Shown one piece after another: positions 39,910 to 47,900 of a DNA stretch of 64,000 nucleotides. The stretch comes from Escherichia coli. GTDB taxonomy: Bacteria > Pseudomonadota > Gammaproteobacteria > Enterobacterales > Enterobacteriaceae. A program made the translations under genes and the position numbers. Below the pieces are notes generated by a model, which was given only the letters and a program-made list of their open reading frames with translations, was not told where the DNA came from and made no database searches. Location of the stretch: NCBI RefSeq assembly GCF_024502345.1, contig NZ_JALDNN010000003.1, one strand, 5' to 3'. Every line of letters begins with the position of its first letter. Within the stretch, counting starts at the first letter, position 1.

Positions 39910-41115
39910 TCATGCCTGGCCCTTGTTCTGCTTTTCAGCATGTTTACGCAGGTACTGCGTCAGATCGCCGTGAGCTTCACAAATGGCATTCATCTCGTCA
40001 TTGGTCAGCACCAGAGTGTAAGTATCGTCGCTGAGGTTCTTAGCGGCCCGTTGTTTAGCTTCTTCCGCAATACGCGAAAACAGCGGGATTGCCGTGTCCG
40101 CAATCGTCGTCACGGTCTTTTTGTTCAGTACGCTGGAGACCGACACAGCTTTAGGCTCTGGCGTTTTGACCGGGTCTTTCATCTGCGGTGCCGGGGTCCT
40201 TTCCGGGGTCGGCTCCGGGTTAGTGCCCGCACTCCCGTCCACCAGCTGCGGTGGGGTGGTCTCATCGTTAGTACCTTCGCCGGACGTTTGTTCAGTCACG
40301 GTGGTTTCCGGGGGGGTCGCATTTGCGTCCGGCACGATGGCTGCTTTCGGCTTCATCGCTGCATCAATGTTGCCAGCTTTGACGAATTTCAGGGTTTTGG
40401 CCGTCGCCTTACCATAAACATCAATGGCTTTGGTGATGTTGTTGACCGCTTCATCGCCGCTGTAAAGGTATTCATCCAGCGCGACATACATACTCACTTC
40501 ACCCTTCACCAACATGGCCTGGAGGGCTTCAGGCAGATCCAGGACGCGAACCATCTGACGCAGGTGCTGTTCGGTTTTACCGCGACGCTTCGCCAGTTCA
40601 GCGAACGTTTTGGGTTCTTCCGCGTCTTCAACCATCCGTTTGATGGAGAGCGCCTCAGCTACGACAGACAGAGCCAGATTTGAGTTACCGTCCAGCGTAA
40701 ACTGCTCGGCACTGGCGCGGCTACCGCGAAACTCCTCGCATCGAATTAACGTGATCAATTCACGCCCTTCATCTGCCAGCTCGATGTTTGCCATCGCGAC
40801 GGCACGGATACGGCATGCTCCCTGGCGCAGGACCGGACGGCCATTCAGAATCTGTACGACAATAGCTTGTACGCTTAAAGGATCGATCTTGTAGGACTCT
40901 TTCAGGCTGTTCAGGTGGGCTACCACGTCAGGTAATGAGTAGTAACTCTCCCCAATGCCAGCAGTACGGGTGTTAAACCCCTCTTCCTCTTCGACCACTG
41001 CCGGGTTAATGACTAGACCATTGCTTTTGCGTGCGCCGTTACCGGTACGCTCCAGGTAGGTGCGCAGGCTGATATCGTTGTTAGCGGTTTTTACATCATT
41101 TTCGACAGTGGACAT
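39910..41115 (-). CDS. ParB/KorB-like DNA-binding protein (orphan, no adjacent ParA)
   Basis: GxxRxRA-type ParB box (RQGACRIRAVA), HTH (KTFAELAKRRGKTEQHLRQMVRVL), low-complexity P/T/E linker; assignment tentative. Confidence 0.5.
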   Translation of the reverse strand: MSTVENDVKTANNDISLRTYLERTGNGARKSNGLVINPAVVEEEEGFNTRTAGIGESYYSLPDVVAHLNSLKESYKIDPLSVQAIVVQILNGRPVLRQGACRIRAVAMANIELADEGRELITLIRCEEFRGSRASAEQFTLDGNSNLALSVVAEALSIKRMVEDAEEPKTFAELAKRRGKTEQHLRQMVRVLDLPEALQAMLVKGEVSMYVALDEYLYSGDEAVNNITKAIDVYGKATAKTLKFVKAGNIDAAMKPKAAIVPDANATPPETTVTEQTSGEGTNDETTPPQLVDGSAGTNPEPTPERTPAPQMKDPVKTPEPKAVSVSSVLNKKTVTTIADTAIPLFSRIAEEAKQRAAKNLSDDTYTLVLTNDEMNAICEAHGDLTQYLRKHAEKQNKGQA

Positions 41116-41204: not shown

Positions 41205-41230
41205 AAAAAAAAGTAACTTTTTTTCCGGGG
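41205..41230. promoter_or_regulatory. palindromic motif copy R0 (AAAGTAACTTT core + TTTTCCGGGGG)
   Basis: about 90 bp upstream of ParB-like gene start; see motif finding. Confidence 0.45.
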
Positions 41231-41324
41231 GTTATAGTACGCGATCCGTCCGTTTTAAATTCTCGCTAAGGAGGGCAAATTTCACTTTAGTGTGAAAAGC
41301 GGGTACATAAAGCAGGAATATGTC

Positions 41325-41348
41325 GAAAAAGTTACTTTCCCGGTTGCC
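41325..41348. promoter_or_regulatory. palindromic motif copy R1 GAAAAAGTTACTTTCCCGGTTGCC
   Basis: 23/24 match (one indel) to copy at 59289-59312. Confidence 0.5.
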
Positions 41349-41875
41349 TGAAAAAATGCCGTTGCAGCAAACACAAGGTGTGAACACCCCCCCCGCCCCG
41401 GCGGCTCCGGGCAAAGGAGTATCCGATGAAGCTTTCCCGGCAGACCACAAATGATACGGCTGTAATCGAAGGCACCCGCAGATTACCGACCATATCGCCT
41501 CCCAGCGAGCCACCGAAGCCAAAAAAGACGGCATGAATTTTAATGCAGGCGTTGAGCTTGCATCTAAAAGGAACTGTGCAACGAGGACAAACATTACCAT
41601 GATTGAACACCGCACAGAGATGCGCCAAACGGCCATTAAATCGCTTCAGGAAGCCGAAGAAGCATTGACGGCACTGGCTATGTCCTATGAGCTACAGCCC
41701 GATGATAAGGCCAGTTCGTGTCATCCACGGACCGGTACTCTCTCCACGGCCAGCCAGGTACGGAAATTGCGCCGTGTCGTCGAAAAGCAGAAAACTTGAA
41801 ATTCGACAAGGCGGCGGGTAGCTATTTCCTGCATGTACAAACTAACAAGGGTTTAGCCGACGATAGAAAGGAAAA

Positions 41876-41907
41876 AAGGGTTTCCCCGACCGGAGAAACC
41901 CTTTTCT
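41876..41907 (+). terminator. rho-independent-type hairpin (GGGTTTC...GAAACCC + T-run)
   Basis: AAGGGTTTCCCCGACCGGAGAAACCCTTTTCT. Confidence 0.45.
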
Positions 41908-41944
41908 AAAGGTGCCATTAGCTTGCTGGCCCACATTCTGAAAT

Positions 41945-41964
41945 GAGGGGGGTCGCCCCCCCTC
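41945..41964. terminator. G/C-rich perfect hairpin GAGGGGGG-TCG-CCCCCCTC just downstream of hok
   Basis: Read directly; 6 bp from hok stop codon. Confidence 0.4.
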
Positions 41965-41970
41965 TTTCAG

Positions 41971-42129
41971 CTACTTACCGGATTCGTAGTCCATCACAGC
42001 CGACACTTCCCGTGTACCGTCTTTCAGCCTCAGTTCGCAGAGCGAATTGCGCGTAAGCCAGGTGAATATCAACAGCGTAAGACATACTATCAATACGCAC
42101 AAAACAACGGGTTGGTTCGGCAGTTTCAT
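41971..42129 (-). CDS. hok: Hok/Gef-family type I toxin (52 aa)
   Basis: [52 protein letters not shown]; AAGGAG SD; ORF-track 100-aa version is an in-frame upstream extension. Confidence 0.85.
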
Positions 42130-42486
42130 GGCCTTCTTCTCCTTGCATTTAAGCGGGTAAGAGGCTACTCTGAATGTGACTAGCATACAGGGGCCTCGGG
42201 TTAATTTGAAAAAATTACTCGGGGCTTTCTGCTTTTTACCACAGTCAAACAGTGAATCTGCTGGCTGGGGCAAAAGCCTCCAGCACCGAGGTTATTATAC
42301 CACCCCGCCCCTTTTAAACGAACAGATCGTTCTCCTAAATATTTAATAAGTAAGTATTTCAGGTTTTGCTGCTTCGCAGGCTGTAACAGCAGGTGTCTGA
42401 CGTAATAACTGATTAAACAGACGGATTCGAATCTCAACACTCAACGACGCCAGCTCGCCTGTTCCCCCGCTTCTTTCCGGCTGTAA

Positions 42487-43092
42487 TCAGTCCGTTTTCG
42501 TACCAGCGATCAGTGACAAACGGTGAGCACGAACACTACTGTGCCGGAGGCTGTCCGGGTAATGGGCGATTTTCTCCAGTTCCTCATCGAGGCGGGTATA
42601 CGTCAGCCTCCTGATTTTCAAGATTTCCTTGTGAAGCCAGCGTTTGATAAAGGGATTGCCGGAAAGCAGTACCAGGTCTGCATCCTCCACTTCATCAAAA
42701 AGCCAGACGGGTTTTGCCGGAGTAAGGCGGTAGAGCCAGGTGCGGGAAAACTCCCCCGTTGCAATCAGAAACCAGACAACCATGCCAAGTGCGAACTCGA
42801 TGACCAGCATCAGGGTAAACTGAATATCCCGGACGTCAGGCTCTCCGGTAAAGCTCATTAGGCGGTCGCCAGTTGCCAGACGCTGAATAATACAGACCAG
42901 CATCAGCAGAGCCAGTAACAGCGCCATGAGCAGCCCGCCGTTCACTTCAAAAGTAGCTTTCTGGACGCGATCAGGCGGCACCTGCTTACGGTAGCGGCCG
43001 ACCACATCACCAATCATTACCCTGATGGCTATGCGTTCTTCATCGACCGTTGTTTCGGTAAATCCGGACGGGCCCGTTTCTGTTTGATTCAT
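42487..43092 (-). CDS. hypothetical membrane protein (201 aa, 2 predicted TM helices)
   Basis: Hydrophobic segments LLMALLLALLMLVCII and FTLMLVIEFALGMVVWFLIA. Confidence 0.5.
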   Translation of the reverse strand: MNQTETGPSGFTETTVDEERIAIRVMIGDVVGRYRKQVPPDRVQKATFEVNGGLLMALLLALLMLVCIIQRLATGDRLMSFTGEPDVRDIQFTLMLVIEFALGMVVWFLIATGEFSRTWLYRLTPAKPVWLFDEVEDADLVLLSGNPFIKRWLHKEILKIRRLTYTRLDEELEKIAHYPDSLRHSSVRAHRLSLIAGTKTD

Positions 43093-43305
43093 GTACCCTC
43101 TCCTCTCTCTGAAAAATAATGGTAAGACGCAAGCTGATCATACCAGGTGAGCAGGAGTGGTTTTGTCGGTTAAAGGCTGGAAAAAAACGGTTAAAAAAAG
43201 AGGGAAATGACAGCAAGAAGGTGGGATGCAGTAAGCGGCTTTGGTTCCCTCCGGTTCTGTGGGGAGGAAACGGCCAGAACAGCAGACCGATACGATGGGC
43301 GGGCG

Positions 43306-43587
43306 CTATTTTGTATCCAGAATTCGTGCCTTTTCTTCCCGCGTCGCCAGTCGGGCACTTCCGGAACGGTCGCGGATCAGCAGTGGCTTTTCCTTTTTCC
43401 AACCAGTGATAGCCGTTTCCCCGAAACGACGCGGTGCATTGCCATTCCAGCTGGCAATCACGTGATTATCGTGTACTTCCTTGATGACGACAGAATGAAG
43501 AGTCACCGTCTTAATGGTGGTGTTTCCCATTTTGGTCCGGGAGAGTGACCAGACGGTCATCCCCACCTCCAGCTGACTGAGTTTCAT
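43306..43587 (-). CDS. hypothetical protein (about 93 aa)
   Basis: Internal Met MKLSQLEVGMTVWS... taken as start. Confidence 0.4.
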   Translation of the reverse strand: MKLSQLEVGMTVWSLSRTKMGNTTIKTVTLHSVVIKEVHDNHVIASWNGNAPRRFGETAITGWKKEKPLLIRDRSGSARLATREEKARILDTK

Positions 43588-43718
43588 CTTTACTCCGGTA
43601 ATATCGGGATACATCATTAAACGACGTGGAGACGTAGGTTAGCATAAGCACTCACAGCGGATACTGCCGCCAGATAACAGGGTGAGGTATCCGCCATGAG
43701 CAGTCTTTACGGCTGGCG

Positions 43719-43889
43719 TTATTCGGCCAGGGCGCGGGTAATAGACGCACGCTGACGCTGGCGCTCAGCCTTACGCTGGCTGCGGCGATATAGCGGCTTC
43801 GCGGCAGCGTAGCGACAATCTTCCGGGTGGTACCAGCAACAGCCGCAGGGCTCAGGCTGGGGTTTTCCGGCAAGTCCGAATGGTTTCAT
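43719..43889 (-). CDS. small Cys-rich ORF (56 aa), not in ORF track
   Basis: MKPFGLAGKPQPEPCGCCWYHPEDCRYAAAKPLYRRSQRKAERQRQRASITRALAE; AAGGTGA SD 5 nt upstream; the overlapping ORF-track frame (43652-43873) lacks a comparable start context. Confidence 0.35.
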   Translation of the reverse strand: MKPFGLAGKPQPEPCGCCWYHPEDCRYAAAKPLYRRSQRKAERQRQRASITRALAE

Positions 43890-43930
43890 AATGTCACCTT
43901 TTAAATGGAATAATGTTCAGGTCCCGTCCA

Positions 43931-44254
43931 TCAGGCCACGGGTTCATTAATGAAGCGGCGTTGCATAAACAGGTACAGATAACCCTCTGGCGAGAACATA
44001 CAAAGATTCTCGGTAATACAGGCATCGAGGTACTTCGTGTCGCCAAGGAGTCGCTTAATGACAGCCAGCTGGTTAGCCGCAGACTGAATCAGCGGATAGC
44101 CATTCACGGCACGATGAATACCTGAGTGGAATAACGAACGAGCCTTTCCAATCTTTTCCCGGGTTGCGTCCATTTCCATATCGATAACAGACTGACGCGC
44201 AACATTAATAGCATTGCCGGATAACTCCGCGAAGCTAACCAGAGGCTTATTCAT
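43931..44254 (-). CDS. hypothetical protein (107 aa)
   Basis: ORF with SD-like GGAAGGAG upstream. Confidence 0.45.
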   Translation of the reverse strand: MNKPLVSFAELSGNAINVARQSVIDMEMDATREKIGKARSLFHSGIHRAVNGYPLIQSAANQLAVIKRLLGDTKYLDACITENLCMFSPEGYLYLFMQRRFINEPVA

Positions 44255-44439: not shown

Positions 44440-44943
44440 TTATTGATAGTGTTTTATGTTCAGATAATGCCCGATGACTTTGTCATGCTGCTCCACCGAT
44501 TTTGAGAACGACAGCGACTTCCGTCCCAGCCGTGCCAGGTGCTGCCTCAGATTCAGGTTATGCCGCTCAATTCGCTGCGTATATCGCTTGCTGATTACGT
44601 GCAGCTTTCCCTTCAGGCGGGATTCATACAGCGGCCAGCCATCCGTCATCCATATCACCACGTCAAAGGGTGACAGCAGGCTCATAAGACGCCCCAGCGT
44701 CGCCATAGTGCGTTCACCGAATACGTGCGCAACAACCGTCTTCCGGAGCCTGTCATACGCGTAAAACAGCCAGCGCTGGCGCGATTTAGCCCCGACGTAT
44801 CCCCACTGTTCGTCCATTTCCGCGCAGACGATGACGTCACTGCCCGGCTGTATGCGCGAGGTTACCGACTGCGGCCTGAGTTTTTTAAATGGCGGAAAAT
44901 CGTGTTGAGGCCAACGCCCATAATGCGGGCGGTTGCCCGGCAT
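44440..44943 (-). CDS. insB: IS1 InsB (normally expressed as InsAB' by -1 frameshift)
   Basis: [27 protein letters not shown]...; differs at several residues from copy 2. Confidence 0.95.
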
Positions 44944-45137
44944 CCAACGCCATTCATGGCCATATCAATGATTTTCTGGTGCGTACCGGGTTGAGAAGCG
45001 GTGTAAGTGAACTGCAGTTGCCATGTTTTACGGCAGTGAGAGCAGAGATAGCGCTGATGTCCGGCAGTGCTTTTGCCGTTACGCACCACCCCGTCAGTAG
45101 CTGAACAGGAGGGACAGCTGATAGAAACAGAAGCCAC
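44862..45137 (-). CDS. insA: IS1 InsA
   Basis: [43 protein letters not shown]... Confidence 0.95.
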
Positions 45138-45290
45138 TGGAGCACCTCAAAAACACCATCATACACTAAATCAGTAAGTTGGCAGCATCACCGAAAATAA
45201 AATAGAGAGAGTTTTCAATCCGCATGACTTTAAAAAAGACAATTTTTAGAAATAAGCCGGATAAAAAAATAGCTTTATCCGGCACTCATA

Positions 45291-46241
45291 TTACAACCAG
45301 TTCTTCCGCTTAAAGTACAGATACGGTGCCAGGCCCGCGAGGATCATAAAGATAATCGCGGCAGGGTAGCCGAAGCTCCACTTCAGTTCTGGCATAAACT
45401 CAAAGTTCATGCCATAGCTGGAAGCAACGAGCGTCGGCGGCAGGAATACCACGGATACCACCGAGAAGATTTTGATGATGCGGTTCTGCTCGATGTTGAT
45501 AAAACCCATTGCCGCCTGCATCAGGAAGTTCACCTTCTGGAACAGGGATTCGTTATGCGGCAGCAGGGATTCGATATCTCGCAGGATTTCACGCGCCTGC
45601 TCCAGTTGCCCACCCGGTAAACGCGCTTTACGCACCAGGAAGTTGAGCGCGCGCTGGGTATCCATCAGACACAGGCGAACTTTCCAGCCGATATCTTCCA
45701 GTTCCGCCAGCGTGGAGAGCGCCTCGTCGTACTCATCGCCCTGATGCCCTTCCATAATCACCCGGCTCAACTGCTCCAGGTCGCTATAGATATTTTCAAT
45801 TTCATCTGCCAACTGTTCGATTTTGGTTTCGAACAGATCCAGCAGCAACTCGTAGGCGTTACCGTCTACCATCGACTGGCTACGGGCACGCATACGATAC
45901 AGACGAAAAGCGGGCAGTTCACGCTCACGCAGAGTAAACAGACGACCATCACGGATGGTAAATGCCACAGTGGAGTTACCGGCGTGATCTTCCGCATCTT
46001 CAAAGAAGAAGAAGGAGTGAATATGCAGGCCGTCGTCGTCTTCAAAGAAACGTGCCGATGCTTCGATGTCTTCCAGTTCCGGGCGGGTTGCCAGGCTCTG
46101 GCCAAGTTCAGATTGTAAGCGCAGTCGCTCGTCGTCGTCCGGTTCGACAAGATCAATCCATACTGCATTTACAAGGGGTTGTGACTCTTCGACTTCCAGC
46201 CGGGTCAGTCGGTTATTTTCCAGTTGAAATGCGCTCAGCAT
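45291..46241 (-). CDS. corA: magnesium/cobalt transporter CorA
   Basis: [31 protein letters not shown]...[17 protein letters not shown]...YFKRKNWL, essentially identical to enterobacterial CorA; terminator hairpin GCCGGATAAA...TTTATCCGGC downstream. Confidence 0.95.
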
Positions 46242-46640
46242 GACCGGGACTCCCAATGCTTAAAATATCGGACAGTTCGGTGGGCACACAGAAACAAATT
46301 GGGTTTCAGACCATTAAACAGCCTGACTCAGCGCGACGGGAAAAATTGAGGTCGCTGACAACCGCTAAGGCTATCAGCAAAAAGGGATAGCCTTAGGAGT
46401 TGATCCTGGATGACAGGATAGTGAGCCAGTATCTACTGGGTGTGTCCAAGGCGAATGTCCTCTTAGAGTGATCGTGCGCGCATGTTACGCCAGCAAAATT
46501 TTGCCGTCAACACGCAACAGAACACCACAGAACAATAGTTGAACTTCGCGCTTTTTGGTACTCGTCAAGGTCGCTAACAGGATAAAAAAATCCCACATCC
46601 AGGACCTATAATGGCGCATCAGCTACTCATTGGTAAAGGA

Positions 46641-46940
46641 ATGATCACCTTGAATCTCAAACGGATTTTTCTCGCCCTCACCTTACTTCCCTTGTTTGCT
46701 GTTGCCGCTGATGATTGCGCACTCTCAGATCCGACGCTGACCGTACAGGCGTATACCGTTAATCCTCAAACAGAGCGGGTGAAAATGTACTGGCAAAAAG
46801 CCAATGGCGAAGCGTGGGGAACGTTACATGCTCTGCTGGCGGATATTAATAGTCAGGGTCAGGTGCAGATGGCGATGAACGGCGGCATCTTAAATTTGAC
46901 GGTTTTTGATATAAAATATAGAAAGAAGGAGGTTTTCTGA
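46641..46940 (+). CDS. signal-peptide protein (99 aa), possibly a truncated chromosomal gene at an island junction
   Basis: MITLNLKRIFLALTLLPLFAVAADD...; stop embedded in hairpin AAGGAGGTTTTCTGAATACCTCCTT. Confidence 0.4.
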   Translation: MITLNLKRIFLALTLLPLFAVAADDCALSDPTLTVQAYTVNPQTERVKMYWQKANGEAWGTLHALLADINSQGQVQMAMNGGILNLTVFDIKYRKKEVF

Positions 46941-47884: not shown

Positions 47885-47900
47885 GAAAAGTAACTTTTCC
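47885..47900. promoter_or_regulatory. palindromic motif copy R4 GAAAAGTAACTTTTCC
   Basis: Intergenic, 200 bp upstream of 47685 gene start. Confidence 0.45.

Follow-up and report, generated by a model that had tools for sequence, protein, structure and literature searches.

Hok/Sok is a type I toxin–antitoxin system whose small toxin gene, hok, is a textbook short plasmid ORF. DUF5417 (PF17438) proteins form another described family. Intact homologues are 110 aa long in the IncHI3-like plasmid pNDM-CIT (WP_058658225.1) and 314 aa long in IncHI2 (WP_000778030.1), and the gene is intact in about 985 IncHI2 and 55 IncHI3-like plasmids. As a general rule, leading-region genes occupy the first-transferred side of oriT and are coded on the T-strand (PMC11541004).

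The window analysed here is a stretch of 64,000 nucleotides from Escherichia coli, in which a sequence-only reading had singled out two short ORFs in a plasmid-like segment as unannotated small proteins with strong ribosome-binding sites. The segment is indeed plasmid-borne: 452 of the 457 E. coli matches to the region are on plasmids, and it is backbone of an R27-type IncHI1 conjugative plasmid (R27/pHCM1-type). In R27, 10–20 kb separate the ORF A cluster from mobI/oriT. The cluster is on the side of the relaxase operon and downstream of it, not across oriT. A literature search on R27 small proteins and the R27 transcriptome found nothing relevant. Both ORFs are present in the window sequence. 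One of them, ORF A, is a genuine and already catalogued gene, while the other, ORF B, is a gene relic, and overall the pair is ordinary. We consider it likely that the full account holds, with ORF A as a genuine gene in an establishment-type string and ORF B as the relic of deletions.

ORF A, its neighbours and its family

ORF A encodes a 6.5-kDa protein. The features of its surroundings are as follows.

43719–43889, minus strand: ORF A, 56 aa, basic (pI 9.8), with four cysteines, the same as WP_000802039.1 (ORF listing, PGAP and orthologues)
43894–43900, minus strand: Shine–Dalgarno (SD) sequence of ORF A, AAGGTGA, 4 nt before the ATG (read from the sequence)
43931–44254, minus strand: 107-aa hypothetical gene directly upstream of ORF A (PGAP)
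43306–43587, minus strand: 93-aa hypothetical gene directly downstream of ORF A (PGAP)
42487–43092, minus strand: 201-aa gene for a predicted membrane protein, next in line on the same strand (PGAP)
41971–42129, minus strand: hok, 52 aa, overlapping mok (Pfam HOK_GEF E 5e-19; NCBIfam E 1e-36)

The position, strand, SD and 56-aa sequence given for ORF A in the sequence-only reading are correct. It is not unannotated, being called by PGAP as RefSeq WP_000802039.1, 'hypothetical protein'. The exact sequence was found on 1000 or more contigs, and full-length orthologues in the same gene order are encoded by IncHI2 (73% aa identity) and IncHI3-like plasmids (95%). In tblastn searches, 1262 plasmid records matched ORF A, and in 1256 the match covered 80% or more of the query; IncHI2 plasmids account for about 1000 of the records, at 73% identity. 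The 107-aa gene and ORF A are adjacent in IncHI1, IncHI2 and IncHI3-like plasmids and in contig L008. ORF A lies in a one-directional string of small 'establishment-type' genes, consisting of the 107-aa gene, ORF A, the 93-aa gene, the 201-aa gene and hok. The hok gene falls within the interval of the two ORFs and is accompanied by an Rfam match to sok (RF01794) at 42127–42288 (89 bits). Neither ORF A nor ORF B belongs to the Hok/Gef family, as both lack a HOK_GEF match, a transmembrane helix and an antisense RNA match. A Hok-like toxin was also dropped as a candidate for ORF A for want of a hydrophobic segment, and a lipoprotein was dropped since no signal peptide precedes the cysteines.

The ORF A family is characterized by the motif MKP[FY]G...GCC..., followed by an arginine-rich helix (RRxQRKxERQ). 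In the family alignment, M1, K2, P3, G5, G16, C18, R36, K40 and R43 are invariant. The G-C-C cysteine cluster is conserved, with the third cysteine two or four residues upstream, so that conserved cysteines occupy only three positions (13 or 15, 17 and 18). A classical four-ligand zinc site within one chain is unsupported because only these three cysteines are conserved, C25 being IncHI-specific. ORF A is likewise not assigned to the zinc ribbons or zinc fingers, with three conserved cysteines only and no Pfam or NCBIfam match. Members share full-length similarity with ORF A that includes MKP[FY]G, the G-C-C cluster and the basic RRxQRKxxR helix. An exhaustive family profile search retrieved 11 matches at E <= 1e-3, including more distant members. 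The 70-aa protein of phage SUSP1 aligned with the family profile in hhalign (probability 97.5%, E 7.5e-12), and phrog_10765 matched at E 3.7e-4.

Carriers of the family are IncHI plasmids, other enterobacterial plasmids (in ArdA-type anti-restriction islands) and Felix-O1-like and other phages. The surroundings of distant members include two PF03230 Antirestrict genes and DUF1380, DUF4942, DndB and LPD29/30 genes, and also a phage contig that encodes NAPRTase and PRPP synthetase. These distant members in islands with PF03230 genes are the only link between ORF A and anti-restriction: known anti-restriction and anti-defence models (ArdA PF03230 and others) matched neither ORF A nor its neighbours in Pfam and PADLOC scans. 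ORF A matched nothing in Pfam, NCBIfam or PADLOC, its neighbours had no PADLOC match and no match to an anti-restriction or anti-defence Pfam model, and the family profile found no sequence in the PDB. The family is without a Pfam or NCBIfam model, and all its RefSeq entries are named 'hypothetical protein'.

The AF2 model of ORF A contains a helix at residues 26–55 (pLDDT ~90), preceded by 25 N-terminal residues of moderate confidence (pLDDT ~62). A Foldseek search of the PDB with a second AF2 model (mean pLDDT 78.5) found no match; fold comparison is uninformative here because the model consists of little more than a single long helix and a coil. Our best guess is a small establishment factor that binds metal and nucleic acid. 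The cysteine cluster would hold a metal or mediate dimerization, the basic helix would bind nucleic acid or an acidic host target, and the protein would act as an accessory factor while the mobile element becomes established in a newly entered cell. Nucleic acid binding taken by itself is a tentative assignment of fairly low probability. It is rather unlikely, though conceivable, that the family (50–80 aa) is a class of small effectors of anti-restriction islands and virulent phages, which would act early after DNA entry and neutralize host defence or seize a host nucleic-acid process, with the basic helix binding RNA/DNA or an acidic protein of the host. If that reading were true, the class would be one without an earlier description.

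Alternatively, ORF A might regulate the plasmid itself, as a small repressor or antiterminator that binds DNA or RNA and controls the neighbouring genes, and not be aimed at the host. A regulatory role, also suggested in the sequence-only reading, would fit the predicted basic arginine-rich helix and the tight adjoining of ORF A and the 107-aa gene in four lineages. However, the distant members are flanked by unrelated genes, such as a DUF1380-like upstream gene in contigs L009 and L020 and the tRNA cluster in SUSP1; the family therefore travels without a fixed target locus. Moreover, Pfam, NCBIfam and Foldseek revealed no known DNA-binding fold in ORF A, HTH and RHH included, and we regard the regulator as improbable, to about the same degree as the effector class.

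ORF A is located among genes that aid the establishment of mobile elements in a new host. The family is widespread, being found in at least 1260 plasmid records and in Felix-O1-like phages, and has no characterized member. Since it sits among establishment genes, is widespread and lacks a Pfam or NCBIfam model, ORF A is a reasonable low-cost candidate for anti-defence and establishment screens of IncHI resistance plasmids.

ORF B, a remnant of a DUF5417 gene

ORF B is encoded on the opposite strand, upstream of a 66-aa gene that converges on hok. The features of this part of the window are as follows.

41426–41536, plus strand: ORF B, 36-codon remnant of a DUF5417 gene (18-residue identity, pNDM-CIT alignment and frame comparison)
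41414–41419, plus strand: SD of ORF B, AAGGAG; the 35 nt upstream of the start are the same in pNDM-CIT
41477–41478, plus strand: junction of deletion 1, with 223 nt lost relative to pNDM-CIT (L003 3553–3775) and flanking GCAG microhomology
41581–41582, plus strand: junction of deletion 2, with ~970 nt lost and with them a 189-aa and a 116-aa gene
41599–41799, plus strand: 66-aa gene WP_000569545.1, surviving last gene of the former DUF5417 operon (PGAP, pNDM-CIT alignment)
41328–41338, no strand: palindrome AAAGTTACTTT, a candidate operator for the transcription unit of ORF B and the 66-aa gene; it precedes the ORF B start by 98 nt
41210–41220, no strand: the palindrome again, as AAAGTAACTTT, ~95 nt before the start of the divergent ParB-HTH gene (401 aa, 39910–41115)
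41387–41394, plus strand: poly-C tract (C8) in the ORF B leader, C7 to C13 among IncHI1 plasmids
41872–41907, no strand: terminator-like hairpin of 16 pairs between the convergent 66-aa gene and hok

The sequence-only reading had placed ORF B at 41416–41538 with 40 aa. The ORF exists, but its ATG is at 41426, its stop ends at 41536 and it encodes 36 aa; position 41416 falls within the SD, and the peptide quoted has 36 residues. It is unannotated, as had been claimed, its exact sequence being absent from 15 billion predicted proteins. NCBIfam and PADLOC scans of ORF B found no match, and a literature search for the palindrome sequence found nothing relevant.

The first 18 residues of ORF B are identical (18/18, 100%) to the start of the DUF5417 protein WP_058658225.1. 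These 18 native codons are followed by 14 frame-shifted codons and by 4 codons in the native frame, to which a 1-nt gain in an A-run returns the ORF ahead of the ancestral stop. The tail of ORF B, RLPTISPPSEPP, corresponds to the +1 frame of the ancestral tail. The Pfam DUF5417 match of the intact protein spans residues 50–92 and lies wholly within the deleted 223 nt, and ORF B matched neither PF17438 nor any other Pfam model at E <= 1. Positional orthology and the N-terminus are shared with DUF5417 members (the 35 nt upstream and the stop codon are also the same), yet the domain match is absent, which is why we class ORF B as a remnant and not as a member. As an ORF it is not conserved in its homologues, its C-terminal half being in another frame and 223 bases missing. 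By this alignment, ORF B is the stump of a DUF5417 gene destroyed by deletion, with its authentic ribosome-binding site and start surviving. The stump was found in 206 R27-like plasmids.

In the ancestor, a promoter/operator, a conserved leader hairpin, AAGGAG and the ATG would have driven a four-gene operon (DUF5417, 189 aa, 116 aa and 66–68 aa). A first deletion in the R27 lineage, of 223 bp at GCAG microhomology, removed the DUF5417 domain and shifted the frame of the tail. A second, of ~970 bp, took out the two middle genes, which are present in pNDM-CIT and IncHI2, leaving the 36-codon stump and the last gene. The product of that last gene matches phrog_19934 (E 2.6e-11). The stump may still be translated, with its start signals now serving the transcript of the 66-aa gene.

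A functional micro-protein or a leader peptide (uORF) under selection, needed, for instance, for expression of the 66-aa gene, is an unlikely reading of ORF B, somewhat more so than the regulator reading of ORF A. Such a uORF might act, for example, through coupling, since an alternative 88-aa reading of the downstream gene starts at 41533 and its ATGA overlaps the ORF B stop, or through protection of the transcript from Rho. Its SD is strong (-8.2 kcal/mol), and IncHI1, IncHI2 and IncHI3-like plasmids all keep the leader with both hairpin and SD. Within codons 1–18, all 8 differences from the IncHI3-like gene are synonymous, as are the 3 changes assignable to the IncHI1 branch; this synonymous pattern can, however, predate the deletion or stem from the IncHI3 branch. 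ORF B is also back in the ancestral frame at the ancestral stop, which overlaps an ATG, but nothing of the DUF5417 domain remains, and 14 of its 36 codons are read in a frame other than the ancestral one.

Some pipelines annotate the 88-aa reading, but PGAP prefers the 66-aa start, which leaves a 62-nt gap from ORF B. In the 15 codons after the ATGA, both of the two changes relative to pNDM-CIT are non-synonymous and the stretch is otherwise nearly identical, a pattern that points to the conserved non-coding ribosome-binding region of the lost next gene. The 88-aa reading was dropped as evidence of coupling, as its N-terminal extension matches this region of the deleted gene. Frameshifts and stops were sought in five IncHI1 sequences; ORF B was invariant, and the only length variation in the 291 nt around it was in the upstream poly-C tract. 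This invariance provides no test of selection because the IncHI1 plasmids are at least 98% identical here. The synonymous changes, the invariance and the regained frame and stop leave room for continued selection on the mini-ORF. A 134-aa antisense ORF listed in some R27 records (41232–41636) was rejected as a real gene, as most PGAP runs omit it and conservation follows the plus-strand DUF5417 frame. The preferred label for ORF B is that of a pseudogene remnant.

Start signals, selection on ORF A and known systems

The ribosome-binding sites of both ORFs are as strong as had been proposed. Pairing of the SD with the 16S 3' end has a duplex energy of -8.3 kcal/mol in ORF A and -8.2 kcal/mol in ORF B, values that rank 5th and 6th among the 219 ATG-initiated ORFs of 30–59 aa in the window (median -2.5). 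An SD alone proves nothing, as four further small ORFs, mostly within larger genes, score equally well. For ORF B, the alignment indicates that the strong SD and the start were inherited from the ancestral DUF5417 gene, and a perfect SD and start codon can thus be inherited debris and not evidence of a new micro-protein. The AAGGTGA of ORF A is kept in the IncHI2 and IncHI3-like orthologues, and ORF A would be translated from this conserved site.

Substitutions in ORF A follow its own reading frame. The dN/dS ratio was 0.048 between IncHI1 and IncHI3-like, 0.128 between IncHI1 and IncHI2 and 0.089 against contig L008. Differences at codon positions 1/2/3 numbered 3/0/14 between IncHI1 and IncHI3-like, with 14 of the 17 at third positions, and 9/10/26 in a second comparison; the synonymous excess was significant (binomial, p = 4e-7 to 7e-6). 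With its orthologues and dN/dS of 0.05–0.13, ORF A is conserved as an ORF, beyond the DNA, in homologous regions. Judged by this pattern, it is a genuine protein-coding gene under strong purifying selection in its own frame. A chance ORF, or conservation owed to an overlapping element (a 73-aa TTG ORF at 43652–43873) or to an RNA or DNA signal, is effectively refuted and extremely improbable. In its favour, the 73-aa ORF is open in another frame in IncHI1, and in some PLSDB records this position carries no listed gene. Against it, changes in ORF A cluster at the third positions of its codons (dN/dS <= 0.13), IncHI2 and IncHI3-like plasmids have the 73-aa frame broken or cut short, protein-level homologues of 30–60% identity occur in unrelated DNA contexts, and PLSDB gene listings are known to have gaps.

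The suggestion that both ORFs are real but missed small proteins is thus supported in part and needs correcting. ORF A is coding and was already in RefSeq, and ORF B is a gene remnant.

ORF B shares with the gene of WP_058658225.1 the promoter region, leader, SD, start codon, first 18 residues and stop codon, and differs from intact DUF5417 in lacking residues 19 to ~92 and in having 14 codons out of frame. ORF A is the same gene as WP_000802039.1 of IncHI1, alongside which UniRef A0A2C8CWI6 is listed; WP_000802040.1 (IncHI2, 73%) and WP_162859439.1 (IncHI3-like, 95%) have the same neighbours and SD. Lambda N and HIV Rev provide RNA-binding arginine-rich-motif peptides, and the predicted helical run of ORF A, RRSQRKAERQRQR, may be likened to their helices as a lead that implies no sequence homology; unlike these peptides, ORF A has a conserved cysteine-bearing N-terminal half. 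SUSP1 gp135 (YP_009199387.1, 70 aa; phrog_10765) and its Ounavirinae relatives share with ORF A MKPYG..GK....CGCC, an acidic patch and an R/K-rich helix (KKRARQE). Identity to ORF A is ~30%, the phage proteins having a 4-residue insertion and a longer C-terminus, and the gp135 gene lies in the tRNA cluster of a virulent phage, whereas ORF A is carried on a plasmid.

Backbone context and start sites

The segment at 41.1-44.4 kb of the window matches about 90 E. coli plasmids at 99.8-100% identity, and 452 of the 457 matching places in E. coli lie on plasmids. About 200 records in the plasmid collection match it equally closely; R27 and pHCM1 are among them, and the segment is therefore R27-type IncHI1 backbone. 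The gene map is that of an identical plasmid annotated by PGAP (window coordinate = locus coordinate + 38099).

Genes of the segment, as annotated by PGAP
39910-41115, minus strand, ParB-HTH protein (401 aa)
41599-41799, plus strand, 66-aa hypothetical protein
41971-42148, minus strand, hok/mok (hok by Pfam and NCBIfam, sok region by Rfam)
42487-43092, minus strand, 201-aa membrane protein
43306-43587, minus strand, 93-aa protein
43719-43889, minus strand, ORF A, 56-aa hypothetical protein (WP_000802039.1)
43931-44254, minus strand, 107-aa protein
from 44440, IS1, then captured corA

The IS1 copy and a chromosomal-type corA-ysgD fragment (44440-46900) split a string of small backbone genes, sitting between the 107-aa gene and genes at ~46.9-47.9 kb. 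This may separate ORF A and its neighbours from the original promoter of their operon, near a palindrome at 47887. The corA fragment is present in R27, where IS1 is absent.

The sequence-only reading had proposed two small unannotated genes with strong ribosome-binding sites, ORF A and, on the plus strand, ORF B. All ORFs of 30-59 aa that begin with ATG, across the window, were scored by how strongly the sequence ahead of the start pairs with the 16S rRNA 3' end. Strong sites were confirmed for both, ORF A (AAGGTGA, -8.3 kcal/mol) ranking 5th and ORF B (AAGGAG, -8.2 kcal/mol) 6th of 219 (median -2.5). Four other small ORFs reach equal scores, and a Shine-Dalgarno (SD) site alone is therefore no proof of a gene. 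ORF A was present exactly as described. ORF B exists, but at 41426-41536 and with 36 codons, not 40, the start first assigned to it falling within the SD.

ORF A, a conserved small gene of plasmids and phages

ORF A is a genuine gene for a small protein, already catalogued and uncharacterised. The supposition that it was unannotated did not hold, as PGAP calls it (WP_000802039.1) on an identical plasmid; the exact protein is found on at least 1000 contigs, always labelled hypothetical or uncharacterized. With tblastn, 1262 plasmid records matched, 1256 with a query coverage of 80% or more (~260 IncHI1-like at 90-100% identity and ~1000 IncHI2 at 73%). The orthologues of IncHI2 and of an IncHI1B/IncHI3-like Klebsiella plasmid have 58 aa, and both loci keep the order 107-aa homologue, ORF A, 93-aa homologue, 201-aa homologue. 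The distance from AAGGTGA to the start is unchanged in the IncHI2 and IncHI3-like orthologues. Nei-Gojobori dN/dS was 0.048 (IncHI1 vs IncHI3-like), 0.128 (IncHI1 vs IncHI2) and 0.089 (vs a more distant contig); 14 of the 17 IncHI1/IncHI3 differences fall in third codon positions, and synonymous changes are in excess (p = 4e-7). Conservation as an ORF in homologous plasmid regions is thus borne out by tblastn, gene order and dN/dS of 0.048-0.128. A 73-aa TTG ORF that overlaps ORF A in a different frame is cut short in the orthologues and was rejected.

No match to ORF A was found in Pfam, NCBIfam, PADLOC or PDB sequences. Two profile searches, one exhaustive over 1.8 billion representatives and one word-indexed, yielded a small family of 50-80 aa proteins. 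In a 16-sequence alignment, M1, K2, P3, G5, G16, C18, R36, K40 and R43 are invariant and G8, C17, Q44 and I50 nearly so; a third cysteine lies at position 15 or 13, and C25 is restricted to IncHI plasmids. The family associates with accessory-gene clusters of plasmids and phages. One branch lies on Citrobacter/E. coli plasmid contigs, within an island of co-directional genes that include two of ArdA type (PF03230), DndB, DUF1380, DUF1419, DUF4942 and LPD29/30. The second belongs to Felix-O1-like phages (SUSP1, Moogle, Sf13, Silverhawkium and others), as an annotated hypothetical gene of the tRNA cluster. Its alignment with the plasmid profile (hhalign probability 97.5%, E 7.5e-12) agrees with a weak phrog_10765 match. 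A further member, on a 154-kb phage-like contig, adjoins NAPRTase and PRPP-synthetase genes. Recognition of the family across both plasmids and phages is a useful by-product of the analysis.

One distant homologue is on a phage-like contig of low GC content (38%) that also carries HNH endonuclease genes (Logan SRR31558082). Called genes of this contig (967-1299, 1368-1565 and 1534-1722) have TAG codons in frame and TAA as their stop, which suggests a TAG-recoded phage.

The gene exists, is under selection and carries a conserved motif. AlphaFold2, run on the 16-sequence alignment (mean pLDDT 78.5), predicts a basic helix with confidence at 26-55, the cysteine-bearing N-terminus being a moderately confident coil; Foldseek of the model against PDB gave no match. 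The GCC cluster could hold a metal or mediate dimerisation, the arginine-rich helix would contact nucleic acid or an acidic target, and the protein may aid establishment of the mobile element in a new host. Nucleic acid binding is a tentative assignment, and an anti-defence or host-takeover role is less likely still. In R27, the ORF A region and the relaxase operon lie to the same side of oriT; genes of a leading region are, as a rule, oriented alike (PMC11541004).

ORF B and the DUF5417 gene

As judged by comparison with related plasmids, ORF B is a stump of a DUF5417 gene and not the small gene first proposed: the intact homologue is longer, and the tail is read in another frame. Matches by tblastn were confined to IncHI1 plasmids and a group of IncHI3-like ones; in the latter, residues 1-18 match, at 100% identity, the beginning of an annotated DUF5417 protein. 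In pNDM-CIT this gene (110 aa) opens a plus-strand operon of four genes (DUF5417, 189 aa, 116 aa, 68 aa) that converges on hok; IncHI2 has the same operon, with a DUF5417 protein of 314 aa. Alignment places two deletions in the window. The first, 223 nt inside DUF5417 (junction 41477/41478, GCAG flanking both ends), wholly contains the Pfam domain (residues 50-92 of the intact protein); the second, ~970 nt (junction ~41581/41582), comprises the two middle operon genes. As 223 is not divisible by three, the remaining tail is read in the +1 frame (RLPTISPPSEPP vs ancestral QIAAHIAAQRKA), and a 1-nt difference in an A-run restores the ancestral frame four codons ahead of the shared stop. DUF5417 is intact in ~985 IncHI2 and 55 IncHI3-like plasmids and a stump in 206 R27-like plasmids, so parsimony points to deletion in the R27 lineage. 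The strong SD, a leader hairpin (CCCGG-N5-CCGGG) and upstream blocks are kept in all three lineages, which is why the start context looks convincing.

In codons 1-18, ORF B and the IncHI3-like gene differ at eight sites, all of them synonymous and three assignable to the IncHI1 branch. This pattern is as compatible with continued selection on translation of the stump, for example to keep the downstream 66-aa gene expressed, as with a recent deletion. Across the 291-nt region in five sequences, variation is confined to the length of an upstream poly-C tract, the IncHI1 plasmids being too alike to decide selection. Retention as a leader ORF seems improbable. A gene in ORF A and a DUF5417 stump in ORF B would not surprise a specialist.

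Compared with pNDM-CIT, the start of the 66-aa gene (41590-41604) is shifted: ATT stands where the ancestor had ATG, and two codons further on an ATA became ATG (MTIIERR... versus MIEHR...), giving a longer SD-to-start spacing. The poly-C tract (41387-41394) is C8 here and C7, C11, C12 or C13 in other IncHI1 plasmids, a variation that may stem from sequencing errors in the homopolymer or from genuine slippage. With C7 or C13, ORF B is joined in frame to an ATG upstream, at 41320, as a 71-73-aa ORF. An antisense ORF of 126-134 aa (41232-41636, minus strand), covering ORF B and its leader, varies in length with this tract. Annotated in some records (R27, pSZ6R-tetX4) and omitted by most PGAP runs, it is probably a spurious call.

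A repeated palindrome

The palindrome AAAGTWACTTT occurs nine times in the window vs 0.01 expected by chance.

AAAGTWACTTT sites in the window (11 nt each)
18335, 19848, 41210, 41328, 47887, 54125, 55402, 59291, 63002

It often extends to AAAAGTWACTTTT, followed at three sites by CCCGGTTGC. R27 carries 13 copies in 49 kb. Eight of these lie between genes, two of them close to oriT in the stretch that separates mobI from the next tra operon. In the window, the divergent promoters separating the ParB-HTH gene from ORF B are flanked by two copies, and corresponding places in the IncHI2 and IncHI3-like loci have the motif too. A literature search found no paper with AAAGTWACTTT in this context. 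The highly over-represented palindrome is likewise among the most useful by-products and is unrelated to the verdict on the two ORFs. The adjacent ParB-HTH protein is the obvious candidate regulator, and the sites look like operators through which one regulator would act across the plasmid, much as KorB does in IncP plasmids.
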